A stretch of 63,747 nucleotides of DNA, counting the filler. It is 13 parts of 13 records of this genome, joined end to end, with 100 filler letters (N's around TTAATTAATTAA, not from the genome) between each part and the next. Parts side by side here need not be neighbours in the genome. Positions count along the whole stretch, not along the records: positions 39,144 to 47,110 come from SRR7504441_8524; 12 more parts are not named here. One strand, written 5' to 3'. Positions 19,401 through 56,215 of this stretch are shown here, in pieces. Position 1 is the first letter of the stretch; the number at the start of each line of letters is the position of its first letter. A program made the translations under genes and the position numbers. The notes beneath the pieces are model-generated. The model was not told the origin of the DNA and made no database searches. It saw only the letters and a program-made list of their open reading frames with translations.

Positions 19401-20264
19401 GACATCGTTCTTAGCCTGCAAAGCCTGCTGTTGGGCGGTGACCCGACGCTTGTCGCCTCGCACAAGGTGCTCCCCAGTGAGCGCTCTGGTCGCCTCTTTC
19501 TGGATCAGAGCTTCCAAATCAGATACAGCGGCGGGCCTTGCGAGCTTCGACAAGTGGTGCAGCGCTGGTCCCGTCCACAGCTTACCCAGTGTCTTGATTG
19601 CGTGCAGCCGAAGGTCTGGAGACAGTGCCTCGTGACTAGCAACAGCAGCGATAGAGGCTGTGTCGTCTGGGTGTTGCGAGTTTGAGTTCCCGATAGCAGC
19701 CAACCAAAGGAGAGCGGCATCTTCGTCGCCATCCGCGACAGCGTGTGACAAGCGCTTGCGAGACATCTGAAGCAGCTCCTGGAATTGGTCTGCACTGGTG
19801 TACTCGCCATTGGCACAGTGCTCGGAATGTCCCATAAGCCCATGCTGCACGTGAAGCGCCATCTTCTCTACCGTGGAGATCGGGTCTTGAGCCAGGCGCT
19901 GCAGGGCTTGGATCACTGGCTTGTGGTCGTAGCATTTGGCTTGAATAAGTGCCATCAGTGCCTGCTGCCTGGCTCTCGGATACATAGCATGGCTGTTCGC
20001 GAGGTCGACCAACTGCATCATGGCCTCTGGCTGCCTTGTCCCAACCCGTCCAATCGTATGCATCAGTGACTGCACAGCGCGGCTGTTCTGTATTCCATTG
20101 TTCGCCATCTCGGACACCACACGGCTCCTAATCTGGGGCACGCCCAATGTCTTCTCAAGCTCTTGCCTCACCTTGCTCTGGGTAAATTCGGAAGCCGGGG
20201 CCTTCTCAAGAAACTCAAGGAAGTCCGGCATGCCTTCGTCAACGTCCTCCGGCTTGTTGGGTTC
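16449..20264 (-). CDS. Large modular extracellular protein: vitellogenin/LLTP-like helical and beta region, beta-trefoil-like region, PT repeats, PAN/apple-like and Cys-rich domains; 5'-truncated
   Basis: Intronless frame of >1260 aa; LMHTIGRVGT, LAAIGN, LRLHAIKTLGKL; PTTSPTNAPTKATNSPT; CQKYC..CNHANF and CQKAC..CSYGSL; GCVDAAALNYNKDA motif. Confidence 0.7.
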   Translation of the reverse strand, partial: EPNKPEDVDEGMPDFLEFLEKAPASEFTQSKVRQELEKTLGVPQIRSRVVSEMANNGIQNSRAVQSLMHTIGRVGTRQPEAMMQLVDLANSHAMYPRARQQALMALIQAKCYDHKPVIQALQRLAQDPISTVEKMALHVQHGLMGHSEHCANGEYTSADQFQELLQMSRKRLSHAVADGDEDAALLWLAAIGNSNSQHPDDTASIAAVASHEALSPDLRLHAIKTLGKLWTGPALHHLSKLARPAAVSDLEALIQKEATRALTGEHLVRGDKRRVTAQQQALQAKNDVEELIELESAETMSGSNFGITREKVWPIGTGDIRAEVKVGVEIKKKDDKYCLHGYAGVDGKAWTWTVSLVQAGGEKCFGKCKGNYEQQKECKKFQKYVSVLGIIVWPSDRIGDRHPNPAQFSQAGDQQGKCQMNVDASDLVIEISFDWTFFEKEKTFKVGGVPIHGLIKMEGEIGIKTGYGNLGDPNVGNPDEMCQTGYIVFAIPYAQATLTGELSLDLALVKGGVGINVIVAKFSLPATSEKFPATSEEQQGGSCSGVYLKAETLGGRIYGFVDRIKKIKIKVKGCWICFWKWKIEREWKRWGEVTFYEWSSPHVWTSNELSCNPASIGEHYTSDGQRMMKSGNYKLTIAKGPKSDKDGSDAQKEWGLSALLSGFGEKNKPSEWVTVHKDLFWAMEWNIQPSTTTDGTYTIKTTHQGPAGGYMPSGFSLAAMSTTSDPFSWVAARSGTKGWQSDWTITEVGDKTGIYAIKTADKQSWGLTAYRERNSVSAYVVARPGDDVTLWKLEYVGEGPTTSPTNAPTKATNSPTGAPTQNPTGAPTTPPPTRLSDCPANTELVGIPRTFYENPTYWAPTYRKWIHQGGWDDGYSCPYIQDVGLNVGKPRAQYASNVFTHSDGKPMTIEELGVASRNEAECLCQKYCEEKPFLKDGKPFRPCNHANFFYGQMTSYDPYGTGSSGGTQPLESGTYAVCTIMFDDCPAHGTGGKKGYLDNPFNPAPGTSISAAIFKRTKVTGCVDAAALNYNKDATYGDTTQPNGGCCYTDSSSKLCEVWQTGKATQDLWVSGYSCPYGNIGNGALSAFDGPGLYSDRASAMAACQKACQQLMTCSYGSLFFGTWQGSDTYSTCYLKSYQCGNWIANAANGYSIFIKDVQEAAKAQSGQCHPVGPNQAGTIAPNNKYYDYNPCSGKDTNPGTYMCNATDNHLPWGYRCPNWIGGGCPNPNAAQGCGWASPCNQACKNYEKPYNNIYCWQATYDDASKRKKWC

Positions 20265-20364
20265 NNNNNNNNNNNNNNNNNNNNNNNNNNNNNNNNNNNN
20301 NNNNNNNNTTAATTAATTAANNNNNNNNNNNNNNNNNNNNNNNNNNNNNNNNNNNNNNNNNNNN

Positions 20365-20425: not shown

Positions 20426-23400
20426 TCACTTGCCCATGCACAGATGGCCAAGCTCTTGACAAAGAGATGCCGGTTCTGTTTCTAGTAGCACCGCCGAAGA
20501 GCCGTGGCAAGTCAGCTGGAGCGCCTCTTGCCGATGCTTTCTGAAGATGTCGTACATTGACCCTTTTTGTTGCTTGTATTTCGCGTCCTGAGGCCGGGAG
20601 TCGTAGGCCTTGGCCGCTTGCTTGGAGCTTTCTTCTTTTTCATGGTCCGCAAGCACACTGCCCATTTGCCGGGTAGTCTTGCTAAGTTCGTTTGAGGACG
20701 CCGGCCTGTCCTTTGAAGGCCGAGCCGTCCCCAGCAGTCTAGCCACAACTTGAGCTTGGTTGTATTTGGAACGAGCCCGGCCATACAGCTCAACGCGGAC
20801 CTTGGAGAACACAGCAAGCTCTATTGAGCAATGCTGCTGGCTTGAGCCAAGCTTGAGCACCCCAGCTTGCGGGTCGGCTTCCTCAATGGTGTCAAACATG
20901 CTGCTTTCATTCACAAACACTGGTGCTTTGAGGTTGAAGTCAGGAACAAACACCAGCAGGCCGTTGCGACGAAGCGAGAAGACAATCGCTTCTGCCTCCT
21001 GTGGGAACTGGGTAAAGTAGAGCCCGGAAAACAGCGCAGTGCACGCCATCTGCACCCGCTTAGAGGCTGCGTTCCGCTCGTTGATGTGCTCAGCGGTCTT
21101 CTCGAGGTATAGCTGAGAGTACTCATGACCGAGCGCGAGCAGTTCACGGTGCACTAAAACGTCGGCATAGCGCCGAATCGGGGAGGTGAAGTGCGTATAG
21201 AAATCAAGCGCCAGCCCATGATGCTTGAAGTCCCGTGGGTCCGGAAGAGTACCTATAGCCGCGCCGCCTCATGGCCCATGCAACTCACGCCGCCCACCGG
21301 TGCAAAAGTAAGTCGCTTCTTCCATGGCGGTCACGGCCAGCCGGCGGAGCAGCTTCAGCTCTTGGGGTGGGACTTGGGTGGCCAGTGCGGCCAAGTGCTT
21401 GCCGAACCCTTGTGCACTGGTATCCAACTCGAGCCCCATCTCGCCGAGCAGCTGCCAACCCATTAGCCTCTATTCACAGCACACTAGTAGGTGCCTGACG
21501 CAGCCCATCGAATTTAGCCCGATCGCTCGGCATCGGGTGCCGCCGGAGCAGCGCAGAGAGCGGGTTGGCGCGATACACCTGCTCAGCCACGCAAGAGTTG
21601 GCAGAGATCATCCATTCGGCGATCATTTGGTTTACCTGTCCCCAATCAGCGTCGGGCATGAGCCGCTGAGCGAGCACCTCGAGGTCCTCGTGCGCCTCGA
21701 TCGCCACGGGACGCAGCTTAGCGTCAAGCTTGAAATCAACCTCGCCACCAGCCAGCTCAATCGCTCCATCCACCGCTCTCTGACTCCGCCGCTTCCGAGC
21801 GACGGCCCGCAGTGCCTCAAGTGAAGGCCGGAGCTCGCTGGCTTGCTCAGCTGGCAACTGGCCAGTCCCCCCAGACAGGATGTCATCAGCCTGAGAGTAC
21901 GCGAGCTGGTGCGCCGACCGGATCACGCTGCGGCCCATCCACGGCTCACCCTTGACTGCGAGCGTCTCGCCATCCAGTGTCCATATGACTGAGACCGCCA
22001 GCCGGTCTTGTTTCTCGAGCAAGGAGCACAGCCCCTCTGAGAGAAGCGTGGGCAGCATGTTAATTCTTCGGTCGGTCAGGTAGATGGTGGTGGCTCGGAG
22101 CTTGGCCTCTTCATCCAGCTTGCTCCCCTCAGCCACGTAATAAGTCACATCTGCGATGTGCACCCCGCACTCAAGATCCCCGTTCGGCAGCGTGTGTGCA
22201 TGCAGCGCGTCATCAACGTCTCGGCATCCGGGTGGGTCGATTGAGCAGATCAATCGCGTCTCGCGTAGGTCCCTCCGGGCGACAATCTCCTCCGGTGGAA
22301 TGCTCCACTCAGGATCGGCAAATTGGACGAGATCGGCCATCACATTGGATGTAAAGTCGGTTGAGTCAAGATCTGCCTCGACCAGCAGCGCCTCAGTCTC
22401 CGTTGATATAGCCCCAACGTCGCCCAGAGAGCGCACCAAATGCCCAGATGGGTGCTTGCTCCCGGGCTGCCAGTCATCTACTGAGACCACAAGTCTCTGG
22501 TCTTTTAGCTGCTGCAGCCGACGAGACCGGAGCCGAATCCGTTCAAACCGAGGGTCCAGAGGGCAGCAGAGCGCCACAAATCCATCTGGCACCGACCCGT
22601 TTTCGTCGACCTGCAAGGTGGCCACCAACGGCCGCCATCTCCGCTCGACCACGGCTTCTACCACGCCGGTCGGCACCAGCTCACCTGAGCTGGTGTCGGC
22701 CTGTGCACCATCCTGCACCAACTGTGAGCCATGTACGCACACGGGCGCACCTCCAGGGCACCGCCCATGATGTCTCCCCGCGCATTGATCCGACGCCGGA
22801 GCCACTCAGCTGCAGGCAGCAGCTTGACGGCCACCACGTCCCCGTGCATTGCATTCCTTCTATGCTCCTTGCTAGGTATGAGCACCCATCTGTGCTCAGA
22901 CCCGGGCGCATTCGGGACCAAACCCTCCCTCAAATGGTGCCGATCTACCCTAAGCGTCCCCTGCACAAGCGACCCCGTCTCCAGTCCGCTGACCACTGCT
23001 GCCTCGCCTATCTCTGACCGGCCACCACTTAGCTTCTGCATCTGCCGCTCCTCATACGCCAGCCATAGAGAGTCAAATGCCGCAACAACGGCCGGCTGCT
23101 CGGCCCAAAACTCCGCCACATACTCGGCCAGTCCCATCGCTCGCACCCCCTCCGCCGTCTCTTCAGGCTCCAGCAGGCCCGCCCGGTGAAGCGCGCGAGC
23201 TTCCAGCCTCACTTCGTCCGCCCGACCCATCTCCCCTGCCCTCTCCAGACGCTCAGCCCGGATCAACCGTCCTGCGGCCCGCTGGCGCTGGCGCATCTGC
23301 GCGGCTTGCTCCGGGGTGGCATGCAGCACCATCACAGGCACCCCTGTCCTCTCCCTGTACCAGTTGCCCACACTCCAGAGCTGCCTGGCTCGAAAGTCAA

Positions 23401-23818
23401 TATCCGGCTCCCAAGGCATCTGGGCGCAGCTCGTGTCGGCCAGACTGTCGTCCATGAACAGCACCGCGCACCGCTTCGGGTCGCGCACCAGAGAAGTGAG
23501 CCTCTCCAAATCTCTGTAGTGCTTCTTCTCCTGGAGCGGCTCGAGCTGCGACTGTAAGATGATCAGATTTCTCCAGACTCCAAGCCCGAACAGCTCCCTG
23601 AACCCGACCAGCGTCTCGCCGGTGGGGATCAGATAGTGCGCGGCGTCGGGCTCGAGTACGCCTTCGCCCCACGAAATATCGGATCGCATGTACCGCTCGT
23701 GCGGCCGAGTGATCAGCCGCGGTCCGCTGCGGAAGGCCCGCACCCGCACCTTGCTGTGCACGCCGACCCACCCGGCCTGCTCCGGCGCTGGTTCTGGCTC
23801 GGGCTCCGGCTCGGGCTC
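20426..23818 (-). CDS. DIS3/Rrp44-family RNB exoribonuclease (DIS3L-like), 5'-truncated
   Basis: ERYMRSDI, degenerate [14 protein letters not shown] (CSD), [62 protein letters not shown]-terminal S1-like region; several mini-introns. Confidence 0.9.
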
Positions 23819-24265
23819 NNNNNNNNNNNNNNNNNNNNNNNNNNNNNNNNNNNNNNNNNNNNTTAATTAATTAANNNNNNNNNNNNNNNNNNNNNNNNNN
23901 NNNNNNNNNNNNNNNNNNGTACAGTATTTCAGTATCGACAGCCCTCTGAATAAAAATTCATCTCCTCGCGTCAACCGGATGTTTTATACATGTATGTACC
24001 ATCATTGGAGTTTCGAATCTTGATGAGATTGAAGATCGCGTGCGAGGCATGATTATTTGGCCCGGCTTCGTAAGGTACTTGACATTGTCATCCTAATCAA
24101 TATCGTTCTCAGCTGGCAATTTTTTATAATTAAGAAGTACAGCTGTACTTGAAATACCGGCAGCTGACCGGTCGTCGAGTCGTGCAAATAAAACCTTTGC
24201 TGGACTGCTGGACTCGGGGGAGGTGCAGTCACTGCGCAGTGCAGCCTGGCGTGCTTTGCACACTG

Positions 24266-39143: not shown

Positions 39144-41833
39144 ACCGAAGACCACAACTCGTAACCGGTCACAGCACTCCCGTTGGCCAGTGGAACAGGC
39201 CAGCCAATTGCGACAGCACCGGTCTCTATGACCTCGCATCGCATGATCACTGGGGCTGCAGCAGGCAGCGGCATAGGCAGTGTGATATCCAGCGTCTCAG
39301 ACCATGGGCTGTCGCCAGCATTCGAGAAAGCACAGTATCGGAACGCAAGTGTGGCGCCTGGTTCGATATCGTCCGTCATGGTCCACTCGAGCACATCAGG
39401 AGGGAGTTCGCAGACCTGAACAGCACAAGACACATCAGTCAGCCGGCTCCAACCGCTGGAGACACACCGAGAACCACCCCGCGACGTCCTTGAGCTCGCC
39501 GGTCTGGCTGTCTGCCGAATACCAGGGCTTGGTGGTGCGGCGCTGGAGTGAGTAGCCTCGGACCGGTGCGCCAAACAGCTCGGGCTCAGTCAGCTTGAGA
39601 GTAAGCTTATTGAACTGCGGCTTGCCCACCACGGCCAGGCACTCCGGCTGGCTGGGCGGCTCGGAGAGAGTCATCACAGACGTGGGCTCCGACCACTCGC
39701 CGAACCCCTCTGCGTTCTGTGCTCTCACGCGGAACTGATACTCAGAGCCCGCGAGCAGCTCGTTCACAGTCAGCTGGTTGGCTGCCACACCGGCCGGGTG
39801 CCACAGGTGGGCGTCCTGCTCTCCGTCCGCCGCCCAGGTCCGGACGTGGTTGAACTTATTGTTGGCCACTGTCCGCCACTCTGTCCGGAGCAGCCTCTTG
39901 TCTCGGACCTGGACCTCCCAATGTGTCACGGCTGGGCCGTCAAAGTCTGCCATCAGCAACGGGCCCCACTGGAGCGTCACTGCGTTCAGCCCGAGCTTGG
40001 CCTCCACACAGGCTGGTGGGTGCGCCTTGGCCGGCATCGCTGCTGTCCTGGTGAGAACCGTCAGTCCTGCGCTCTCGAGAGACGATCCAGCCACGGACTC
40101 AGCTGCCAGCCTGAACACGTACGCCGTGCCCGGCTCCAGCTGGTGCTGGGTGTGCTCGCGGACGTATGGCGGGTAAGAGCCCACTGGTACCCACCCCTTG
40201 TGTGAAGAGAGCATCTCGACTCGCATCGCAGTGATGTCCGCTCCACGCATCTCTGGGTACACCCATCCGATCGTCGCTGCCCCAAACTCAGAGCGCAGCA
40301 CAGCGGGCGGCCGCACCGTGGAAGAACGACTCGCCCACCGAGAATGGGGTGCTCGGCTGGAGCGGAGGCTTGGGCTGCTCCGTGATCTGTCGTCAGCTCT
40401 GAGAGCGAGCTGAGGGCGGAGCCGCACCACGGTGAGGCTTGAGGGCTGGCCACTCCCAGCGCTGTTGACTGCGACCACCGCCACGTGGTACGACATGTCC
40501 GGCTCGAGCGCATGGATTGAGTACTCAAGCTGGTCCGTCTGGCCGACCTGCCCGACCGCTCAGGCTGGACTCGACTCACTCCGGACCTCGCAGAGCTTCT
40601 TGTTGCCGGTCTCGCAGCAGTAGATTTTGTACTTGCTGATAGCGAAGCTGTGGTCCTCGGGCGCCAGCCACTTGAGCCGCACGGTGTCGTGGCTGGCAGA
40701 GACCAACTGCCCGGCTCGTGAGCGGCTGGTTGCAGCTGCCTGAACCTCGAGCTGCTCCGGAGCCTCGGCCACGACCGGACTCAGCGTGCTCAGCTCGACG
40801 AAGCTGGATATGGCCGAGTCCCGCCCCTCGGCGTCGCAGCACAGACAGGCCACCCCGAAGGCGTACCGGCGGCCCGGCTGCAGCCCCTCAGCCTGCCGCT
40901 GGTGAGTCACGGAGCTCACGAGCATCGCACCGTGTATTGGACTGTTTCCGGATGGGACGCGTCGCACGGCGAGCGGTAGGTGTGGTCCGGGGCCGGCCGG
41001 ATGGTGTCTAGGTGCATGGCCCCGCCCACTGCATGGCAGTCGACTCCTTCGAATGGCTTGTGGCTCAGAGAGCCGTCGTCAGCGACCAGATAGATGCCAA
41101 ACCCCGCCAGCCGGTCGCAGTACTTGCGGTCGTAGCAGGACTGCGGCACCCGCCAGGCGAACGTCAGCGTGCACGGCGTGGCCTCGACCAGCCTGCAACC
41201 AGTCATGCCCTCACAGCACTGCGCGCACCAGGGCGCCTCCGGTGCTTCGAGGGTGAACGCTGGGACCGGCTCCTCCAGCACAGCGGCTGGGTCCGCAAAG
41301 GTGGCCTTCGCGTCGAAGAACAGGCTCCGGTACATCCCGAGCGACTCCTCGGGGGTCCGAGCGGCCAGAAGCGCCCCGTAGTCGGCCTGCCCGCCCAGTC
41401 GGCCGCGGCGGGGGGCGTGCGGGACTTCGAGCGGGTTGCCCTGGAGCGCGAGCGATCGGAGCCGGGTGAGGTTGCCCAGCGTCCACGGCAGCCGCCGCAG
41501 CTTGTTCTCGCTCAGATCGAGCGCGGCCAGGTTGCTGAATCCGCCGAGGGCCACTGGCAGCTCCTCGAGCCGATTGCCCGCCAGCGAGAGGTGCACCAGG
41601 TGGTGCATCTGGAAGGTCCGGTCCGGTATCTGCCGCCCCGGGCTCCCAGCCGGTCCGGGGGGCGGGCCGCACCGTGAACAGGCTGAGCCGGTCCAGCCGG
41701 AGCACCCCGCTGGTCTCGGCCGCCTCGAGCGCGTGGCCCACCGCCACGAACTTGTCGTACCTGCGGCCAGCGAGTCGGTCGAGCGCAGCAGGGCCGCGCA
41801 CCCAGGGTTCGGGGCCGTCGGACGCATCGTCAT
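39144..41833 (-). CDS. LRR + tandem fibronectin type III protein, 3'-truncated
   Basis: LxxLSLAGNRLEELP and LDLSENKLRRLP LRRs; FN3 motifs (W..P, LEPGTAYVFRLAAES, YQFRVRAQNAEGFGEWS). Confidence 0.85.
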
Positions 41834-42003
41834 CCCCTGCGAATCAGCGGCCAGGAACTGCTCTCCTCCGCAGCCTCTGGTGGGCCCTCTGGCTGCACTC
41901 GTAACAGCGCAGCTGCAGCAGATCTAACGGATTCTAGACAGCTCACATTGCGCCGCGGGTCGCTCTTTGAAGAGAGCTCCGAACACTACTGGGGCGTACC
42001 GTG

Positions 42004-45000
42004 ATGGCGTCGGGCGGAGACCTGGAGGTGGGGCGTCCTTGTTCTCCTCCTAAGCGGTCGTTCTACCCCCCGGGATGTTCGTACAACGACCAACCGGGCT
42101 ACGTCGGGAACCTGTCGGTGGACCAGAGGATCGCCCTTAAATTGCTCAAGACCCGACTGCGCGAGGCCGGAATTGACCTGCATGTGGGCAACTGCAAACA
42201 TCCCAAGGAGAACAAGGACGCCTTCCTGCTACGCTTTCTGCGGGCACGCAACTTTCACGTCGAGAACGCCAAAAAGCTGCTTGTGGCCGACGTTCAGTGG
42301 CGGGTGGAGCAGGGGATCGAAGAGCTGACCAACCGGACTGCCCGGTGGGGCGCGCGCATGGGACGGGTGAGGGAGTTGCGGGGCAGGTCGATACTTGAGT
42401 GTGACCCGGTGGACGTCAACCGGCACTACCCTCACTGGACTCACAAGACCGACAAGTTCGGGAGGCCTGTCCTGTTTGAGAAGACCGCCGACTGCAACAT
42501 GGACAAGGTGCTCGAGCTGACCGAACAGAAGAACGTGGTCGACTACCACATATGGCGGGCCGAGCGCAACTGCCGCAAGCTGCACCGGCAGACTGAGTGC
42601 ACCGGCTACCAGGTGCCTGATTTGAACTGATTTGAACTCGCTCTAAAGTCTGATGTGTCAGGTGGATACATTCTGTTCTGTGGTTGACGTCAAGGGGATG
42701 GGCCTCTCGCAGGTATCCCGTAAGTTCCTGTCAGTGGTGCAAGAGATTGCAGCCATTGACCAAGACCACTACCCTGAGCGGCTGGGAGTTCTCTTCATCT
42801 GTAACATACCTCGGATCTTTTGGATGGTCTGGGCCGGAGTCAAGCCGTGGCTCTCCGAGCGCACCACCGACAAGATCAAAATCTTGACCAGCTCGGAGGT
42901 GAATGAGGAACTGGCCAAACACATCGATCTGGCTAATTTGCCTGAGGAATACGGAGGCACTTGCCGATGCGAGGGCGGATGCTTGTCCGAGCGGTACGAT
43001 CCGGACGAGGCTGAGAGACTCGACGAGGCGGCTGTGCTGCCGGAGCCAAGCATGCTAAGCAAGCACAGGCGGATGCACAGCCGTGATGTCGGCCATCGTA
43101 GAGCGCAGAGCTGTGACAGCCAGGCAGAGATGAGCTTTCACTCCGCTCTGGATCTGGATGAGCAGAATGGCGACCTGACATCGATGGCGGACTCGGAGTT
43201 CGACGATGAGGAGCTTACCCCGGAGGAGGCAGCTGCCCTTGAGGCAACGCGGCAGGCCCTCAAGAAAAACCAGTGTTTGTTTCGGTGGTGTAACACTGCA
43301 CCATATGCTCTTGCAGTGGTGCTGATTACGCTCGCTATCTATGCGCGAGCGGCGTTGTGGTGGGATAACGGTGCGGGACGCCGGGTAACTGCCTGGTGTG
43401 TTGCTGGGAGTTTCATGCTTGGGTGCGTGCTGTTGCTCACTGGCTTTATTGGCAACTATGGTGTGAATGCATCACGGCCTATGGTGCTGCAGGCCTATGG
43501 TATGCTCGCGTCAGTGTTTGCACTTCAAATCCTCGCGCTCGGCATCGCAGTCCTTGGTTGCCATCAAGAGATAGCAGACATGGTGAGTGCAACTAAGGAG
43601 GAGAAGGCAAATCTGCAGGACTACTCGATTGCATATGGGAGCTGTGCCGTAGTGGCAGCCGTACTGCTGGGCCTGAACGGATACTTGGCCTTCTCATTGA
43701 AGTCCAAGATCGAGCAGCAGCCTGACCCAGTCCCTGAGGACACTCAGCTTCGGTTCATGCTGCGTATTATATCAGCTGCCATCCTGCTCATGGCCACGGT
43801 CTCATTTGCTCTCGGGTGGAGCTGCTCGCTTCTGGCATCCTATACCTCGAATTATGTCTTTGGCATTTTTGTTTTCACTGTAGGCTCCCTGGTGATGGCT
43901 GTTGTGGCAACAGCTAGTATAGTGATAGCTTCATCGTCAAAGACACAATCTTCCTTGAGCAAGCTGAATATACTCTGGTGGACCATTGTGGTGGTGCTTC
44001 TTGGGTTGATCGGTTACACAATTGCCACGGGGATTTCTATCAATGAGATACAAGGCGAAATAGCTTCCAACTGGCAATCAATCAAAGTGCAGCTCAATAA
44101 GCACGACGATTGGAGGAATAAAACCCAAGACGAGATTGTGGCCACACTCGAGTGGAATCGGATATTTGTGGTGGCAGCCTGTTGCATGCAATGGACTCTA
44201 TTCGGGTTTCTGCTGTTCATGCTGGGCAAGTTTGTGCTGCACGTTAAAGAGCACGCGGTGGAATCAACCCAAAGGCAAGTATTGACCCTCACAAACAAGC
44301 TGATCGTGATCTGGGCTTGCGTGGCCGCGTTCTTTCAACTCTTCTGGCAAAGCCAGTATCTGCTCTTCATGAACTGGCTATCTGTGGACAGTTCAGCCAA
44401 AAGTGATTACAGTCAAAGTTGGTTTGTTGCTTCTTGGTTTCTCATGGGTGATGCTGACGATCGATACTCGCATGAAGATCACATGCTGTGGACCCTAGAA
44501 CTATTTGCTGTGATACTCGGTGTGCCCCTCTGCTTGCTATTGGCTTGGGGCATCTGCGAGAAGCTTCCATCACGTTACGTTGTCGGGCTGATGGCGTCTG
44601 CGCTTCAGATCTACCATGCCCTACTTTACTTCATCTCTGAGGCCTCGGACTCTTTCGACAATACGCCAGGAGTCAACACAGTCGAATTCTGGATGATTTT
44701 CGTGCTTGTCACTCTTCTTCGATTTGTGGTACCAATTCCAATTTTTGTTCACTGCTGGCGGATTCTGGTACGGAGTGTTGCAATCATGGATGCCCAGCCT
44801 GTCGAGCACTCCCAACCAGATGACAAGAAATCATTTGTGGAGGCTTGCATGCCCGAGGAGAATACCTCGACCGAGGGAGCAGACGCCAAGCCCTCTACCG
44901 ACGATGCTCGTAGTGATGCCCCATGGTTCCACAGCACTGAATCTGTGCCGCCAGACGAAGCTGGAGTGGAATTGAGCAGTCCATTGTCGCAAATTGCGAG

Positions 45001-45292
45001 TCCGACCAATTTCGAGACACCAGCCCATACACCTTGCATTACTGCTGAAGGAGCAACACCTGGAGCTCCGTCGCCATCAGTGCTTGAATTGCGCTCAGAG
45101 CCAGCTCAGCCTGAGGCGAGCACATTCAAACAGCTCAGTGTCGCAGCACTTCCAGTTGCTGGCATGGAAAGGGTGGAAGCAGGAGCTCAAGCAGAAGACA
45201 CAGATGAGATGCCAGAGCTCGTCATGTACAATGAAGATCAAACGACCGACCCACCAAGGCCTCTAGCGCCTGAGGTAGTGGAGGGATCATGA
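42004..45292 (+). CDS. Sec14/CRAL-TRIO domain fused to a multipass membrane region (tetraspanin-like x2 + EBP/EXPERA-like)
   Basis: DAFLLRFLRARNF, TDKFGRPV, DQDHYPERLG..FICN.P..F..VW..VKPWL..RT..KI, LPEEYGG; two introns, then an intronless TM region containing WFLMGDADDRY...LE...GVPL...QIYHALLYFISE. Confidence 0.85.
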
Positions 45293-45397
45293 TATGTGGA
45301 ATTAATGTGGAATTGTCGTTTATAGATTAGTTTATAGATGATTGCATTATTACTTAAATGTAATATGATTATATTGAGGTTGTCTTGGGTTTGACGA

Positions 45398-45428
45398 TTA
45401 CTTACTTACTTGCTTACTTACTTACCTA
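45398..45428. repeat. (TTAC)n microsatellite
   Basis: ttacttacttacttgcttacttacttacc. Confidence 0.8.
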
Positions 45429-45701
45429 CGACCTAGAAAAGGAGGCCCCGGCGGGGCTTTATACAACTGTACATGTAAGTGAACTGCTTGATAGAGCAGA
45501 GCCGTGACTAATTAATCTCCAAAACGTGAAGCTTGATTAATATTTCGAGCTCGAGCTTGATTGAGTAGACAATCATAGAGTATACACTCGTTTTCCAAAT
45601 TGATTTATTTTAAACTGTGGAGCCGATCATGATCAATCTAAGATGTGATCGGTTGAAGATTAAATTCCGAGCCGCGCAGGGTGACTCTCGTGAGTCCCGT
45701 C

Positions 45702-47110
45702 TCAAGGAGCTCGTTCGCACACAAAAGGGTAGGTCTCGGCACATCCTTTGGAGTACCAACTCGCACCCTTTTTGGCAGCACACCTGCGCAGGAAGGTGAG
45801 CCAGAATGACACTGGCCTGGCAGATACCTCGGCGAGCCGTCATTCGACGTGGCTGGCTGGTTCCCGGCCCAGCTAGTGTACAAGCCATCAGCAGTGAACG
45901 CCACTTCACCAGTCACCCAGCGCCATTGTGTGCTTACCTCTGCGATCCCAAGCGTCAATAGACTCGGTGGGGCAGTGCTAAAATACCAGCATCTGTATAG
46001 CCGATCCAGTAGGTTGTGGCGGTGTTGTTGACCAGTGCGCTGACATATGCCTCCTCCGCAGCATCTTGGAAAGTTACTAGATGCGCCCCATCGGCAGTGC
46101 ACACAGCATAGGCGTCCAAATAGCTCCGAGCACTGGCGTAGTACTCATCTGCAAACGATATCAGAATTACGCTTGGTACAAGGGTAGACTCACAGCAGTG
46201 CCGGCTCGTGTAGTGCAGCTTCCTCCGGTTGCCGCCGTCGCACTTCTGGTAGATGCTGTCGGCCACAATATCTCCTTGGAAAACCGCGCCACCTACAAGC
46301 ACTCAGAATGCACTGGGCAAGGTAAGCACCCGCGAGCTCCATGTTTCCGGATGCATCGACAGCCATCAAAACTTCAGACTTCTTTGGGTCAGAGCAGAGC
46401 TCAGCCTCGACCGAAGGATCCGTGGTGTAGCACCTGCAGAGCAAATTATGAGGCTGTGAAGCAGATTTAGTCACCAAAGCCTGCCGCTCTGCGATGGGTC
46501 GCGGCAGTAGTTGTGATCGCCAGTGCCAGTGGCGCTGTCTGGGCCTGGGACGTAGTAGTTGTGCGCATGGGGGACTTGGACTGACCACTTCTGACACAGC
46601 CGGCCACTCTGGGTGACTGAGACCGTACCGCGGTACTTGGATAAGTCTAGGTCAAGCTGTTCACCCCGCTGGATTTCGTACCTTGAAGTGGTGCCAATAG
46701 CACCCACCCGCCAAAGATCGGCGTTGGTCCCCTGGAAAGAGATTGTGGCGTCTTTGACCTCGCCAGCTGTCAGGGAGATGCTGGCATGGTCGTGTTTGGA
46801 AGCCACGTTCATGATTGCTTCTCCTGAGGTCGATCCTTCAGCAGGCTGAGCGAGCAGATCGAACGAAACGTGGCTCGATGAAGCCGGGTTGGTCGAGAGT
46901 ACAGTGAGAGCTGCTCCTGCTGACCCAGCCGTCTGCAACATCATGTCGGCTTTCCCTGTGGGGTGTGTCGTCTTGAATTCGGTGGTGGCATCTCCGCCTC
47001 CTGACTCCATGTTCACTCTAACATTCTGGTGCTTCGAGTAAATCCGGACAGTCGCATCGCCTGATGTTGAAGAATCGCCCGAGGGCTCAGCAAGCACATC
47101 GAGGGTTGCG
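45702..47110 (-). CDS. Fibre-like beta repeat + kringle + C-type lectin protein, 5'-truncated
   Basis: Kringle YRGTVSVTQSGRLCQKW...HNYCRDP...W|CYTTD...ELC. Spliced CTL: HCY...AYAVC...GAHLVTF...YWIG...WRW...W...QP...RCA...WYSKGC...PFVCE*. Confidence 0.85.
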
Positions 47111-47314
47111 NNNNNNNNNNNNNNNNNNNNNNNNNNNNNNNNNNNNNNNNNNNNTTAATTAATTAANNNNNNNNNNNNNNNNNNNNNNNNNNNNNNNNNN
47201 NNNNNNNNNNCCTGCGCGCTCGGCCGGCCTCCCAGGCGAGGCCCAACCCGCCCAACCCGCCGCGCCATTCGCTGCCGTTTCTCCGCCGAGCCGAGGCTTC
47301 GTTTCACTCGCGAC

Positions 47315-51588: not shown

Positions 51589-54237
51589 CTAGCCTTTCGA
51601 GTCAACGAGCGGAATTGTAAATTGGAAGACATGACCTTGAGCGTCGCCTACCCAAAGCGCCTGATGCGTCTCGTCCCTTGGAATGTGCAGTGCAGTTATT
51701 GCGATATCTTGATTACAGACCTGCAATACACCACTCAACCGCATCTAATCCAGTGCATGTGTACCTTGATGGTACGAAGCCTCATTTTCCTGCCAGTGAC
51801 ATCATCAGCGATAGAAATTGTTCTTCGCTCGTCGCATGAAATGCTCCAAAAACGGACAGACCCATCTACATGGCCAGATACATAGACGTTGTCCTCGTCC
51901 CAATCGTCACCGCACGAATAGGCGACACAGGTTATCTGCGGCACGTCCATGCGTACTACACCTCCGTGAGAAATACAATCCTCTGTTATCCCCAGCAGCC
52001 GCCCATTGATAGTCCACACCAGCAAATTGTCCTCAGTTGCCACGAGCAACGCTCCAGTGCACACGTGCACCTCACAGCAAACAATTGGCGCCTTTAACTT
52101 GCATACTGTCCGGATGTGGCGCATCTTCACCAAGTCCCACCTATCACATTCAAATCAGAATTTGTCACGCTAGGCAACAGGCCACTTACAGCATCACCAG
52201 ACCGTCCCTATCGCCAGAGAGCACTACACCGAAGTCCTTTGACACAGCCACGGTTGTAATCATTGCATTGTGCCCACATAATGATCCCCTGTGCTTGAGC
52301 CGCCACGGTTCCTCCTTCTTCGGGTCGGAGATAAGGTCCCAAACGTGCACCAGGGTGTCCTCCCCTCCGCTCACCACACACTTTGAATCGCGAGTGGCGC
52401 ACAGGGCGGATATCCGACCTTGATGAAGCCGATCAATCGGATTGAACTCGTGCTTGCGCTTCTCCTTGACCAACCCAAAGGTAACGCACCCGTCGTCCCT
52501 CCACCAGGACATATAGGTCTCGGCTTTGGGCAATAACATGACACTATGAAGAGGACAGCAACGGACTTTGGAATCCTTGGTCTTCATACCTCCAATTCCA
52601 TAGCTTGCATGACTGACCTGCTTGCCTACGACGCTCTCCGGTGCCTTGTGTAATGCCTGGGCTTGAAGATTCCGCGGGAGTCTCGAGGGATGGGGATCCT
52701 CAAAGATCTGGGATGGGGTTTGGCCAAAGTTGGTGATTTGGTCTGTCAATGCCCTCCGCTCAACTTCGTCGGCCACTTCATCGATGTTAACAGCGCCTTC
52801 ATAGGTCAGGTGATAGAATACATTGAGGGCATCGATTGCGGCTTGGCCAAGCTGCTTGTATCCAAAAATCAGGTCTATCCACTGGTGCAAGTGCAAAGAG
52901 ACATACTCCGACTCCAGTGCCTGTCGGTTCTTTTGAATGAATACTAGAGGATCCCCATGAGCCCATGGTGGTAACAAGCAATCGTCGACAACTCTGCCAT
53001 ACTGCGTGGTACCTAACTTGACATCATTCGAATTAACCAGAAAGTCTGGCAGATAGAAGAACTCAGGGATCAGTTCCTTCACATCCGATAAGTTAGCAGC
53101 GTCGTTCTTTCCTGATGCTGCCTCCCATGACTCTTGGATGGACTGAAACAGCCGGTCAGCGACATCGAAGTTACCGCCCTGAAATTGCTTGGCAAACTTG
53201 GTAAAGGGTTCCAGTCGGACTAGGAAATGGAGTACAATGCCCGCAGAAGAGTAATGCGAGCCGTAGTGAAATTGAGGTATCTCGCCAGACGGGTCTTCCC
53301 ATCCGTCGTAGCGCTGCGCAAAAGCTCTAGCGCGGGTGGGCATTTGAGCCCCCATTGGCTTTGACAGATCACGGTACGCGCGCTCGTCTTGTAGGTCGAT
53401 TTCTTGAGATGAATAGTCCGCTAACACCCATGGAAACACTGGGTAACAATTCAGCTCATTGTAAGATCGTCCAGCGATCATATTCAGCTGCATCAAATAG
53501 TCAAAATTTGAGATGTCGCGCTCTTGCCAGCGCTGCGTCACACTCTTGTGAAAGTTGAGGATGCGCTTGACTACAGTAAATGCACTCTGATGCTTACCGA
53601 CCTCGTGGCCCACTTGCAAGGCCACGTGATTAGGAAGCTCAAGCTTCCCAAACTGCTTGAACACCTTGTTCCGTTCCTTTGGACTGTCAAGCACCACGTA
53701 CATTGATCTTCCGTTCGTCCGGAAGACCTCCAGTCCAGTAGCACAGAGCAAGTAATTTCTCTTGAGGAAATCTCTGATGTCACTGTACATCCACCTCGTG
53801 CGTCCTGTTGCACTGTCTACACCAAACCCACTGCCTTCGTCTGCTTCGTCAATCTCGCAGATCTCGCCATTCTCGCTCACAGAGAAGTGATCAAGCACAT
53901 ACAGACTTAGTTGGCCGAAAAGAAGAATTCCCCTGACTTTGTCCAGACCTCTGATCGATGTGCAGTTGAAGCAGCATCTGATGGTGTCGTCGCGGTCTAG
54001 CATCTGTTTGACCCGTTTGCTCACAGAAATCAGCTTCATTTTCTTCTTCCTTGTTGACTCAGATCGCATCCGCACAATTCTGGCTGGAGATGTCTCCATC
54101 AGCATGTCTAGATTGTCTTGACTGTCCCTAAGATCCACAGTATCTTCGCTGTCCCTTCGGTCTGGCTCCTCGCTGTCCTGTCTTACCTTGTGCGAGCCTG
54201 GGCTGAAAGTAGCTTCGGGGGCTGCTCCAACCGGGCT
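51589..54237 (-). CDS. PH-BEACH-WD40 protein (BEACH family), 5'-truncated
   Basis: ISNFDYLMQLN..AGRSYN, YPVFPWVL, RDLSKPMG, HYGSHYSS, DVKELIPEFF, HLHQWIDLIFGYKQ, FGQTP, followed by WD40 repeats. Confidence 0.95.
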
Positions 54238-54337
54238 NNNNNNNNNNNNNNNNNNNNNNNNNNNNNNNNNNNNNNNNNNNNTTAATTAATTAANNNNNNN
54301 NNNNNNNNNNNNNNNNNNNNNNNNNNNNNNNNNNNNN

Positions 54338-54560
54338 GCTGGAGGAGGTGGCGGTGGCCAACACGGTGCCGCTCAAACCGGACGTGGCAGCCAAATGTAA
54401 GAAGATTCAGATGCTGTCGGTGGGCAAGCTGCTGGCTGAGACAATCAAGCGCGTGCACTGCGGGGCGTCGCTCTCTGAGATGTTTGACAGCTCGAGCAAC
54501 GGACTGCTCAGCTCGCCCGCATCGCCCATGGCTAGCCCCATGCCCGCGGCGTCTTGCTAG
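54338..54560 (+). CDS. PRPS: Ribose-phosphate pyrophosphokinase C-terminal fragment
   Basis: LEEVAVANTVP...KIQMLSVGKLLAETIKRVH...SLSEMF. Confidence 0.8.
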
Positions 54561-54820
54561 ACGCTTGCTATAGTCCAAGCAAATTAAGCCGACACGACAC
54601 ACCCTCGATTGTGCATTAACTTAGATAGTAGAGGGCGGACAGAGTTCCCTGTAGGAAGGTCATTAGTTAGAAGGAAGTTCCCTAGAAATTCCCCATCAAC
54701 CGCGAATAATTTAAATCAAATGGAACATACGGAGTTTAGTATCATCAAAAAACCGATCAAACGCACTTGGCCATGCTGATTGCTGATCGACCGTTGTAGG
54801 CTCGCTGGCCTTTCGAGGAC

Positions 54821-56215
54821 ATGAGCGGCAGAACTCCTCGGCGTCGGTCGGCGACCGAGTGCACGCCACCGGCATCATTCACCAGCTCATTCAGCAGCGT
54901 GGCGAGTGACTCCAAGCTGGCTTCGCTCGGCGAGCTCGGCAAGCGGAAGACCGGGTCCTCCGGTGAGCAGCAGGACGACGAGCCGTGCCGCGTGGGGCTG
55001 CTGGACGACGAACGATATACCAGCGAGGACAAGTGGCAGATTGGCTGCTTCTGGCTGGCTGGGCTGCTCAACAACAGCAGCTACGTGATCATGATCGCGG
55101 CCGCCAAGGAGATCATCAGCGGGGGGGTGGGTCTCGTCTTCCTGGCCGGCACCGTGCCTTCCTTCCTGGTGAGCACCACCGCGCCGTACTGGTTCCACCG
55201 GGTGCCGTACGGGATCCGCTTCGTGGTGGCCGGGTTACTCATGTGCGGCTCATACCTCACTGTAGCCTTGGCGCCTGACCAGACCGTAGCGCTGATCGGC
55301 GTGGTGTTCGCCTCCATCCAGGGTGGGCTCGGGGAACCTTCGTTCCTCGCGCTGGCCTCGCTCTACAGGAAGAAAGAGGCCTACCTGACCGCCTGGTCCA
55401 GCGGGACCGGCTTCGCTGGCGTGTTCGGGTATGGCTGGCTCACGTTCCTGCATCAGATAGGTGGGCTCTCATTCAGGGACACAATGCTCATAGCCAACTC
55501 CCTGGCCGTCTGCTGGCTGGTCGGGTGCCACTGGCTGGTGGTCCGCCCACCAGGGGTTGGATGGTACTGTCGGTCCGACGAGCACAGGCTTGTGCCGGGT
55601 GAGGCGCCCGAGGTGGCTCGACAGGAATCATTCGACGAGGGCGAGGAGGAGGACGACCCCGTGATGACCTCCTGCTTCAGCCGGTTTAGATTCGTTGTGA
55701 CCAAGCTGTGGCCGTACACCATACCGCTGGTAGTGGTGTACGTTTCCGAGTACGCCATGCAGTCAGGCTGCTGGGCCGCTATAGGCTTCCCTGTGCATGA
55801 AAAGTCTGCTAGGGACAAGTTCTACTTGTATGGCAACTTCTGCTACCAAGGCGGCGTGTTTGTGTCCCGCTCCTCGGGGATGCTCTTCAGAGCCAACCGA
55901 GCTACCCTTTGGGCAATGCCAGCATTGCAGGCAGCGCTGCTTGTCTTTTTCTATACCGACGCCCAGTGGCAGTACTGGTATGATTGGGGGCTACTCGGCC
56001 CGTGTGTCATGTCCGGGCTGCTGGGTGGAGCGGTATACGTCAATGCGCTCACCCTGATCTGCGCCGAGGTGGAGCCCAAGTATCAAGAGTTTTCACTGAC
56101 GGCTGTGGCCACCGCCTTCTCTTTGGGAATCGTGATTGCAAATGGCGTTGGGCTTATCATGCAATGCGAGCTATACAAGGTGCACAGCATCTCTGGCGCC
56201 TCGCTGAGCTGCTGA
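54821..56215 (+). CDS. CLN3: CLN3/battenin (BTN1) family transporter
   Basis: FWLAGLLNNSSYVIM, GGLGE, AWSSGTGFAG, PLVVVYVSEY, YQGGVFVSRSS, GLLGGAVYVN; intronless. Confidence 0.92.
   Translation: MSGRTPRRRSATECTPPASFTSSFSSVASDSKLASLGELGKRKTGSSGEQQDDEPCRVGLLDDERYTSEDKWQIGCFWLAGLLNNSSYVIMIAAAKEIISGGVGLVFLAGTVPSFLVSTTAPYWFHRVPYGIRFVVAGLLMCGSYLTVALAPDQTVALIGVVFASIQGGLGEPSFLALASLYRKKEAYLTAWSSGTGFAGVFGYGWLTFLHQIGGLSFRDTMLIANSLAVCWLVGCHWLVVRPPGVGWYCRSDEHRLVPGEAPEVARQESFDEGEEEDDPVMTSCFSRFRFVVTKLWPYTIPLVVVYVSEYAMQSGCWAAIGFPVHEKSARDKFYLYGNFCYQGGVFVSRSSGMLFRANRATLWAMPALQAALLVFFYTDAQWQYWYDWGLLGPCVMSGLLGGAVYVNALTLICAEVEPKYQEFSLTAVATAFSLGIVIANGVGLIMQCELYKVHSISGASLSC

Follow-up and report, generated by a model that had tools for sequence, protein, structure and literature searches.

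What does a protein do that carries a soluble lipid-binding domain at one end and a membrane-embedded relative of a sterol isomerase at the other? A nuclear gene for such a protein, from a marine protist, lies on the + strand at positions 42004-45292 of the window, by which we mean the whole 63,747-nucleotide stretch of DNA analyzed here (filler included). The window consists of 13 joined parts; positions 39,144-47,110, which contain the gene, come from SRR7504441_8524, and adjoining parts are not necessarily neighbors in the genome. From its N-terminus, the predicted product has a Sec14-type CRAL-TRIO domain, an acidic linker, two tetraspanin-like repeats of four transmembrane (TM) helices each, and an EXPERA domain related to the human sterol isomerase EBP. 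An initial annotation, made from the sequence alone, described a protein of this kind and read it as a lipid-transfer domain tethered to a non-catalytic sterol-binding membrane module. Our analysis confirms that observation and supports its interpretation, and it adds the two introns, the duplication of the TM block, the pattern of barcode residues in the Sec14 domain, and a conserved linker motif. The reading that we favor for the protein as a whole, with modest confidence, is a membrane-anchored lipid transfer or sensing protein of membrane contact sites that resembles STARD3.

The gene is a single eukaryotic protein gene with three exons and two short GT..AG introns, and with both introns removed the spliced product is 3198 nt long and encodes 1065 amino acids. 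In the genomic sequence, one open reading frame (ORF) runs from the ATG at 42004 to a stop codon at 42628-42630 (ORF listing), and a second, of 879 codons, runs uninterrupted from 42653 to the stop codon at 45290-45292. The introns can be placed by comparison with P0002, the one full-length relative found when 5.8 billion proteins were searched with a word index; it is 41% identical and has the four Pfam domains as well. Intron 1 corresponds to the lone 14-residue gap in the BLASTP alignment with P0002 (56% identity, 189 columns), and an alignment of 20 full-length relatives has no insertion at this site in any of them. The length of intron 1 is in frame, and the reading frame is therefore unbroken there. 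Removal of intron 2 joins ...TGYQ to VDTFCSVVDV..., which matches the junction in P0002 (...GYQVDTL...; TGYQVDTLVSVVDV). Intron 2 also contains a perfect 10-nt tandem duplication (TGATTTGAAC twice). The proposal that all domains belong to one gene holds up: the 879-codon ORF is continuous, and the same domain order is found in transcripts of Telonema subtile.

The architecture recurs in other protists. An exhaustive search of 1.84 billion representatives yielded 126 proteins at E<=0.001. A CRAL_TRIO domain together with the C-terminal membrane module was present in 18 of the 39 cluster representatives that were scanned with Pfam, Telonema subtile transcripts and three ochrophyte algae among them, and in every long match block 1 is followed by block 2 and then by EXPERA. 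Carriers include Telonema subtile (Trinity transcripts, 42% identity), Tribonema gayanum (transcript), Chrysophaeum taylorii, Pelagophyceae sp. CCMP2097 and Chrysoparadoxa australica; the architecture is thus seen in Telonemia and in ochrophyte algae. Some shorter entries without a Sec14 domain are, judging from how they cluster, fragments. For example, P0025 (619 amino acids) falls in the same 90% cluster as P0136, a protein of 1054 amino acids with CRAL_TRIO, Tetraspanin (34.8 bits) and EBP matches, all over their cut-offs.

The N-terminal part of the protein is a full CRAL-TRIO domain, as initially annotated, and belongs to the CRAL-TRIO/Sec14 superfamily. Both Pfam models score over their curated cut-offs: CRAL_TRIO_N at 35.5 bits (cut-off 23; residues 69-94) and CRAL_TRIO at 104.7 bits (cut-off 22.6; E 5.3e-30). 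A PDB sequence search matched solved Sec14 and Sfh1 structures at E values of 1e-13 to 3e-16. Sec14-type proteins that exchange phosphatidylinositol (PtdIns) and phosphatidylcholine (PtdCho) have, according to the available text of PMC4945147, a PtdIns barcode (R65, K66, T236, K239) and a PtdCho barcode (Y111, Y122, Y151, S173, T175). Reading these positions off HMMER alignments to Sec14 and Sfh1, we found three of the four PtdIns barcode residues as that text gives them (R65, T236 and K239, with Asn in place of K66) and none of the five PtdCho barcode residues (Y111T, Y122L, Y151A, S173F, T175S). The protein therefore has most of the PtdIns half of the pattern expected of such exchange proteins and lacks the PtdCho half. 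This pattern makes binding of PtdIns, or a derivative, by the Sec14 domain plausible and makes PtdCho unlikely as its second ligand. The CRAL_TRIO_N and CRAL_TRIO fold and residues R65, T236 and K239 are shared with Sec14-nodulin proteins, patellins, and yeast Sec14 and Sfh1. Unlike the known multi-domain Sec14 proteins, the protein encoded in the window lacks the PtdCho barcode, and its Sec14 domain is paired with a 12-TM module, where those proteins have a nodulin or GOLD domain. Two relatives, P0043 and P0100, have two tandem CRAL-TRIO domains ahead of the membrane module (Pfam, alignment).

The C-terminal third of the membrane module is an EXPERA domain. Pfam EXPERA/EBP (PF05241) scores 36.3 bits (cut-off 25.7), phmmer against human EBP (6oht) gives an E value of 2.9e-9, and the family profile matches EBP at E 2.6e-33. 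A Foldseek search with the whole 560-residue structure model of the membrane part returned only human EBP (8w0r, 6oht), at E 8.6e-5, with a TM-score of 0.71 on the target and a root-mean-square deviation (rmsd) of 2.2 Å. Human EBP was also the top match in VIA, where the last four helices of the model superpose on it (Z 18.5, rmsd 1.9 Å over 160 residues, 25% identity, model residues 346-513). The domain thus combines a PF05241 match over the cut-off with the four-helix EBP fold, and its position agrees with that of the EBP-like region first placed at about 44290-44780. Human EBP itself (PDB 6oht, 8w0r) is a stand-alone protein of about 230 amino acids, in contrast to the EXPERA domain described here, which makes up the C-terminal third of a 12-TM protein of 1065 amino acids.

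Despite this fold, we predict from its residues that the EXPERA domain is not a sterol delta8-delta7 isomerase. The available text of PMC4263179 lists 11 residues needed for EBP by alanine scanning: H76, E80, W101, Y104, D108, R110, Y111, E122, T125, N193 and W196. Only five of these 11, as listed there, are kept (W101, D108, R110, Y111, E122), and six are altered (H76Q, E80Q, Y104M, T125A, N193T, W196R). The by-eye reading that first suggested a loss of catalysis is reproduced by the phmmer alignment to 6oht, in which H76Q, E80Q, N193T and W196R are seen and the 'DDRY' string and E122 (in 'LE') are kept. Because His76, Glu80, Asn193 and Trp196 are lost, the domain should not have the isomerase activity of EBP. 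Both Gln codons (44336-44350) lie in an RNA-library contig covering 44294-44633 with 0 differences. The same text argues that, throughout the EXPERA superfamily, catalysis is marked by an acidic residue at position 80 and another at position 108. D108 is kept here, and position 80 is Gln in the window protein and Glu in its nearest relatives; P0002 and P0129 both have Gln at 76 and Glu at 80, and E80Q is thus specific to the window protein.

The EXPERA domains of the family as a whole also differ from canonical EBP. We aligned 85 domains, taken from the 126 exhaustive HMMER matches and cluster members after leaving out 11 near-duplicates and domains covering <140 of the 177 profile positions. 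Among the 49 module-bearing domains, none has Trp196 and 35 have Arg at this position; Thr125 is found in 3, Asn193 in 15, and His76 in 18. Among the 36 stand-alone domains, Trp196 is present in 25 and the full set of H76, E80, E122, T125, N193 and W196 in 18. Asp108 and Arg110 are invariant in both groups (49/49 and 36/36). In a maximum-likelihood tree, a branch with a Shimodaira-Hasegawa-like approximate likelihood ratio of 91 (under the starred level, 95) separates the 26 canonical stand-alone EBP-like rows from all module-bearing rows. The window protein does not group with these canonical EBPs and falls with P0002, P0129 and P0005 (support 100). The ten other stand-alone rows fall among the module-bearing ones and are short, and they are therefore probably fragments. 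A charged Arg at position 196 would sit in the final helix, next to Asp108 and Arg110, and could redefine what the pocket binds.

Other EXPERA proteins provide a precedent for a non-enzymatic role. The sigma-2 receptor (TMEM97) and TM6SF1/TM6SF2 are reported, in the literature text available, as sterol-linked but not isomerases, and TM6SF2 is described there as 'cholesterol-bound'. The bovine sigma-2 receptor (7m93) was a VIA match at Z 12.3. The window sequence is closer to EBP than to TMEM97, and no TMEM97 chain was among the 60 profile matches listed. Unlike TMEM97 and the TM6SF proteins, the family has an Arg of its own where EBP has Trp196, and its EXPERA domain is joined to further modules.

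The eight helices preceding the EXPERA domain are a duplicated tetraspanin-like unit. The TM blocks initially placed at about 43290-44250 resolve into two adjoining repeats (see table). Compared as family-alignment profiles, repeats 1 and 2 match each other with an hhalign probability of 97.9% (E 5.5e-13, 150 columns) and match the EXPERA domain at only 0.1% and 0.5%; they are therefore an internal duplication. The same two values led us to reject the idea that the repeats are extra EXPERA copies, as in TM6SF proteins. The initial description of the repeats as tetraspanin-like stands at the level of the family. In the window protein itself, Pfam Tetraspanin (PF00335) scores 17 bits, below the cut-off of 32.1, but it is over the cut-off in four relatives (P0006, 46.4; P0025, 36.7; P0010, 32.2; and P0136, 34.8 bits) and detectable at E<=10 in 15 of 20 full-length members. 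The family profile matches tetraspanin structures, including CD53 (2e-11), TSPAN15 (1.6e-8), TSPAN7 (4.4e-7), CD81 (7.6e-7), CD9 (3e-4) and UPK1B (3.8e-4).

Structural comparison of the repeats is less discriminating. An exhaustive VIA search matched repeat 2 to PRPH2-ROM1 (Z 17.2) and uroplakin (Z 15.3), with near-equal scores for further membrane bundles of four helices (Fc-epsilon-RI beta, sarcospan chains, CD20, synaptogyrin). Helical bundles can score high in VIA from arrangement alone. Tetraspanin-type matches appeared in this exhaustive search only, and Foldseek gave EBP alone. In the ESM Atlas, the three best clusters for the 8-TM part are labeled 'Tetraspanin family' at 0.81-0.82, which is under the meaningful level of 0.9 and serves as a lead only. 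The repeats share a four-helix membrane bundle, with profile and structural similarity, with tetraspanins (CD53, CD81, CD9, TSPAN15, peripherin-2, uroplakins). Unlike these, they occur as two tandem copies and have no large extracellular loop. As first noted, there is no CCG motif in the 879-amino-acid exon-3 ORF, and the predicted outer loops contain no Cys. Thus, 'tetraspanin-like' is, on this evidence, the right term, and we do not claim membership in the canonical tetraspanin family. The tetraspanin CD81 contains an intramembrane cholesterol pocket.

The linker between the Sec14 domain and the membrane module, correctly described at the outset as acidic, contains a conserved FFAT-like motif. 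The equivalent linker in P0002 (residues 280-353) has a predicted local distance difference test score (pLDDT) of <50 in a model of the full-length protein. Among the 20 full-length relatives, the linker is otherwise unalignable, and one short motif stands out, with the consensus S..S..F.DA. Behind a stretch that is acidic or rich in serine, 18 of the 20 relatives have, in matching columns, [FY]-x-[DE]-small, with Asp or Glu at position 4 (17 of 19 without the near-duplicate P0130); examples are EFVDARD, EFFDVMA, AFYDAVE, KFSDAQD and TFHDAYS. The window protein has SFHSALD, preceded by the flank dsqaem and aligned to TFHDAYS of P0002, and a metatranscriptome contig (43072-43222) covers it. As set out in the available text of PMC7705450, the FFAT core is E1-F2-F3-D4-A5-x6-E7 with an acidic flank, and it binds the MSP domain of the VAP proteins belonging to the endoplasmic reticulum (ER). 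In the phospho-FFAT form, as in STARD3, position 4 is Ser or Thr and binding occurs only once it is phosphorylated. SFHSALD fits the core pattern given in that text as the phospho form. A second conserved element, SEFDDEELTPEEAA, lies 15-25 residues past the FFAT-like motif and directly upstream of TM1; it is a poor FFAT match.

The location of the linker relative to the membrane depends on the topology of the protein. Modeled with AlphaFold2 and 39 homologues, residues 201-760 of the exon-3 ORF form twelve long helices, with a mean pLDDT of 86.7 and a predicted template modeling score (pTM) of 0.79, and a hydropathy scan gives membrane segments in a 4+4+4 arrangement. The Sec14 domain has no signal peptide-like start and is followed by twelve helices, so the Sec14 domain, the linker and the tail should all face the cytosol. 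Tetraspanins, like EBP, have a usual topology, which for the tetraspanin repeats is N-in, C-in. Cytosolic N- and C-terminal ends would put both the tetraspanin-like repeats and the EXPERA domain in their usual orientations. The tail has a pLDDT of <50 from model residue 537 onward, as does the tail of P0002 (882-980). The full-length P0002 model has an overall pTM of only 0.49 and therefore predicts no fixed contact between the Sec14 domain and the membrane part.

We postulate that these parts work together as follows. The 12-TM module would serve as an anchor in one membrane. A sterol or similar lipid would probably be held, without catalysis, in the EXPERA pocket and perhaps in the tetraspanin-like bundles too; sterol is the ligand that we infer for the membrane module. 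Held without turnover, this lipid could be either sensed or fed to the Sec14 carrier. The FFAT-like motif would dock on ER VAP proteins, in the window protein once the position-4 serine has been phosphorylated. An FFAT-type motif on a membrane protein suggests a seat in a non-ER membrane and a bridge to the ER via VAP, as for STARD3. The tethered Sec14 domain might then exchange PtdIns and a second, non-PtdCho lipid between the apposed membranes, or present PtdIns to a kinase. The initial annotation had suggested a role at contact sites, and the conserved motif gives this part independent support; VAP binding itself is predicted from the motif.

The closest known parallel is STARD3 (MLN64). 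According to the available text of PMC7705450, STARD3 combines a multi-pass membrane domain (MENTAL), an FFAT-type motif whose position 4 is Ser, and a cytosolic lipid-transfer domain, and the window protein appears to have the same three elements. However, no homology is implied. The modules of STARD3 are START and MENTAL, whereas those found here are Sec14 and a tetraspanin-like/EXPERA module, and the domain order is reversed, with the transfer domain of the window protein at the N-terminus.

None of the three findings that would contradict the initial annotation (a C-terminal region without EXPERA, intact catalytic residues, or transcripts of two separate genes) was obtained. Nevertheless, several points weigh against our reading. 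FFAT-like strings are common, and the aligned motif is absent from 2 of the 20 relatives. In the window copy, position 4 is Ser where the core has Asp, and the flank is only moderately acidic; the strength of the motif therefore rests on its conservation in the family. The linker scores that speak for the motif come from a penalty scheme of our own, not the published matrix, set against 500 composition-preserving shuffles. By this measure the best site in the window linker scores 2.0, a value reached in 1.2% of the 500 shuffles; among the 15 proteins whose linker could be delimited by script, the best site is <=2.5 in 13, and the observed score is matched in <=5% of shuffles in 11. Topology is a second weak point. 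The positive-inside count is uninformative, with 10 Lys/Arg in the putative cytosolic loops and 8 in the outer loops, and what supports the topology is therefore the soluble domain at the N-terminus together with the even number of helices. In addition, relatives P0006, P0008, P0010 and P0011 keep His76 and Glu80, so the subfamily may not be uniformly inert.

The RNA data are a further limit. Four marine metatranscriptome runs contain 10 short contigs with 95-100% identity to exon 3, and to exon 3 only (cover: 42863-43013, 43072-43222, 43673-43809, 44294-44633 and 44717-45313). These contigs cover pieces of the exon, and none of the 10 crosses an intron or a domain boundary. The metatranscriptome contigs neither confirm nor contradict a single transcript. 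One contig from run X2 links 44521-44659 to 45203-45313 on opposite strands; because a single low-depth contig shows this link, it is probably an assembly chimera.

The most serious alternative is that the protein is a locally anchored regulator of phosphoinositides, in which the Sec14 domain gives PtdIns to a phosphatidylinositol 4-kinase, as proposed for Sec14-nodulin proteins, and the 12-TM module is merely an anchor or tetraspanin-type scaffold, with no function for a sterol pocket and no tethering to the ER. The mostly conserved PtdIns barcode (as given in the excerpted PMC4945147) and the tetraspanin relation of the repeats agree with this view, and in the same excerpt there are multi-domain Sec14 proteins in which PtdIns presentation is coupled to a module at the C-terminus that targets membranes. 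However, a simple anchor leaves two features unexplained: the constant attachment of an EXPERA domain with invariant Asp108 and Arg110 (49/49), and the conservation of an FFAT-like motif in the linker. We consider this alternative unlikely.

The contact-site reading also has a bolder form. The family could be a new class of contact-site lipid machines in which the 12-helix module, made of the tandem tetraspanin-like repeats and a catalytically dead EXPERA pocket whose family-specific Arg faces the invariant Asp, lifts a sterol or other lipid from its bilayer to the tethered Sec14 domain while an FFAT or phospho-FFAT switch docks the protein on the ER. We regard this as improbable. If it were true, the family would be a eukaryotic counterpart of LetA-LetB or PqiA-TULIP made from tetraspanin and EBP parts, and tetraspanins and non-catalytic EXPERA proteins in general would be suggested as intramembrane lipid handlers.

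We judge a further reading quite improbable. The tandem repeats, possibly with the EXPERA domain, would form an intramembrane device that mobilizes lipids by extracting or flipping them and hands them to the fused carrier, like bacterial LetA/PqiA with LetB/PqiB, or like the PqiA-TULIP (TUPAL) proteins found in protists. The available portion of 10.64898/2026.09.11.750981 describes 8-TM modules made of two 4-TM units and fused to lipid-transfer domains, and calls tetraspanins remote homologues of PqiA/LetA. Direct comparison did not bear this out for our family. Pfam PqiA (PF04403) is found in 0 of 20 family members, and the family profile matches E. coli PqiA with an hhalign probability of 0.09%. 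The repeats match PqiA-N and PqiA-C (31 gammaproteobacterial sequences) at 0.1-0.7%, whereas the control comparison of PqiA-N with PqiA-C gives 98.8%. LetA (9n8w), although present in the structure library, was not among the 50 matches listed, all of Z at least 8.9. In addition, the Sec14 domain is on a long disordered linker and is not docked in the P0002 model (pTM 0.49). PqiA/LetA identity of the 8-TM module is thus without sequence support, although a structural relation may yet exist. TUPAL proteins (PfTUPA: a PqiA-like 8-TM part plus TULIP) differ in the same way: the window protein has no detectable PqiA similarity, a Sec14 rather than a TULIP domain, and an extra EXPERA domain, and its transfer domain is probably cytosolic whereas that of TUPAL is luminal. 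A functional analogy to PqiA/LetA stays attractive, but sequence homology is unsupported.

We think it highly improbable that the EXPERA domain is still an enzyme that acts on a sterol or other isoprenoid through a changed mechanism, with the Sec14 domain feeding it substrate. D108, R110, Y111, E122 and W101 are retained, the four relatives named above keep His76 and Glu80, and the acidic residues at positions 80 and 108 are those argued, in the part of PMC4263179 available, to be the mark of catalysis. In the window protein, however, positions 76 and 80 are both Gln, and module-bearing domains lack Trp196 (0/49), rarely have Thr125 (3/49), and fall outside the canonical EBP group. Finally, although no RNA contig bridges the domains, a mistaken joining of adjacent Sec14 and membrane-protein genes has next to no probability, given that the second half of CRAL-TRIO, the linker and all 12 helices share one stop-free 879-codon ORF and that the order is repeated in the 18 cluster representatives, including the Telonema subtile Trinity transcripts.

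Proteins of this family are already in public databases, without functional names. Relatives in NCBI are called 'hypothetical protein' or 'CRAL-TRIO domain-containing protein'. The architecture had been flagged initially as uncharacterized, and a search of the full-text literature (a coverage without subscription journals and supplements) found, among the papers listed and judged in part by title and opening of the abstract, no description of a Sec14/CRAL-TRIO domain fused to EXPERA or to tetraspanin-like repeats.

It is still debated what part non-catalytic EXPERA proteins (TMEM97, TM6SF1/2, EBPL) and tetraspanins play in lipid handling. In this family, both types of module are joined with a classical lipid-transfer domain and with what looks like a motif for docking on the ER, and the fusion has been kept across Telonemia and ochrophytes. 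The fusion is a natural hint that membrane modules of the EXPERA and tetraspanin-like types work together with soluble carriers of lipids. The family could serve as a compact test system for sterol binding by a dead EBP pocket, for lipid mobilization by tetraspanin-like bundles, and for the coupling of phosphoinositide signaling to sterol status in protists. To the few membrane-anchored transfer proteins that carry an FFAT motif, of which STARD3 is the type, it would also add one based on Sec14.

Table. Features of the Sec14-EXPERA gene, in positions of the window; EBP residues are numbered as in the human protein.
Feature	Position	Strand	Description and basis
Exon 1	42004..42344	+	Start codon, N-terminal extension, CRAL_TRIO_N (~42208-42285); N-terminus aligns with P0002
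Intron 1	42345..42386	+	42 nt, GT..AG, in frame
Exon 2	42387..42612	+	First half of CRAL-TRIO; aligns to Sec14 chain positions 100-150
Intron 2	42613..42661	+	49 nt, GT..AG, stop codon inside
Exon 3	42662..45292	+	Remaining CRAL-TRIO, linker, 12 TM helices, tail, stop codon; uninterrupted ORF
CRAL-TRIO, second half	42662..42958	+	T236 and K239 equivalents; Pfam CRAL_TRIO, alignment to Sfh1 and Sec14
Acidic linker	42959..43252	+	98 amino acids, 25 Asp/Glu; predicted disordered
FFAT-like core SFHSALD	43133..43153	+	Ser at position 4, as in phospho-FFAT; flank lies upstream, from 43115
Second conserved linker element, SEFDDEELTPEEAA	43193..43234	+	Family pattern [WF]x[DE]EL (consensus WxEEL); alignment
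Tetraspanin-like 4-TM repeat 1 (TM1-4)	43253..43720	+	AlphaFold2 helices; Pfam Tetraspanin 17 bits
Tetraspanin-like 4-TM repeat 2 (TM5-8)	43724..44260	+	~40-amino-acid helical loop between TM7 and TM8
EXPERA domain (TM9-12)	44270..44800	+	EBP homologue, predicted non-catalytic; Pfam, phmmer, VIA
EBP H76 and E80 positions	44336..44350	+	Gln (44336-44338) and Gln (44348-44350); phmmer (FFQLFWQ)
EBP D108, R110, Y111 equivalents	44456..44467	+	Kept, D108 at 44456-44458; phmmer ('DDRY')
EBP N193 and W196 positions	44711..44722	+	Thr (44711-44713) and Arg (44720-44722); phmmer (VTLLRF)
C-terminal tail	44801..45289	+	~165 amino acids, acidic, Ser/Thr/Pro-rich; predicted disordered

The other genes in the window are ordinary nuclear genes, encoding GH31, Dis3-like exonuclease, BEACH, CLN3, TYW3, leucine-rich repeat (LRR)/fibronectin-III and kringle proteins. 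A kringle gene lies downstream of the Sec14-EXPERA gene at 46471-47154 (-; E 5.4e-12), and an LRR plus fibronectin-III gene lies upstream at 39435-41923 (-). Kringle, LRR and fibronectin-III domains are extracellular-type modules and are uncommon in protists.

Several genes elsewhere in the window may also act in lipid handling or membrane trafficking. The 1287-codon open frame at 16449-20312 (-), 22 kb away along the joined stretch, has a weak match to the N-terminal region of lipoproteins and vitellogenins (22.9 bits, cut-off 24) and may be a gene for a large lipid-transfer protein. At 52186-56215, 7-10 kb downstream along the joined stretch, are genes for a BEACH/WD40 protein (E 6.8e-119) and for CLN3 (E 8.8e-78). 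Both are endolysosomal trafficking genes, and a functional linkage to the Sec14-EXPERA gene is without evidence.

The source organism appears, from one conserved ORF, to be a member of a poorly sampled lineage. The Dis3-like exonuclease ORF at 21474-23866 (-) has no relative of >46% identity among the 5.8 billion proteins, and its best matches are scattered among green algae, oomycetes and fungi.

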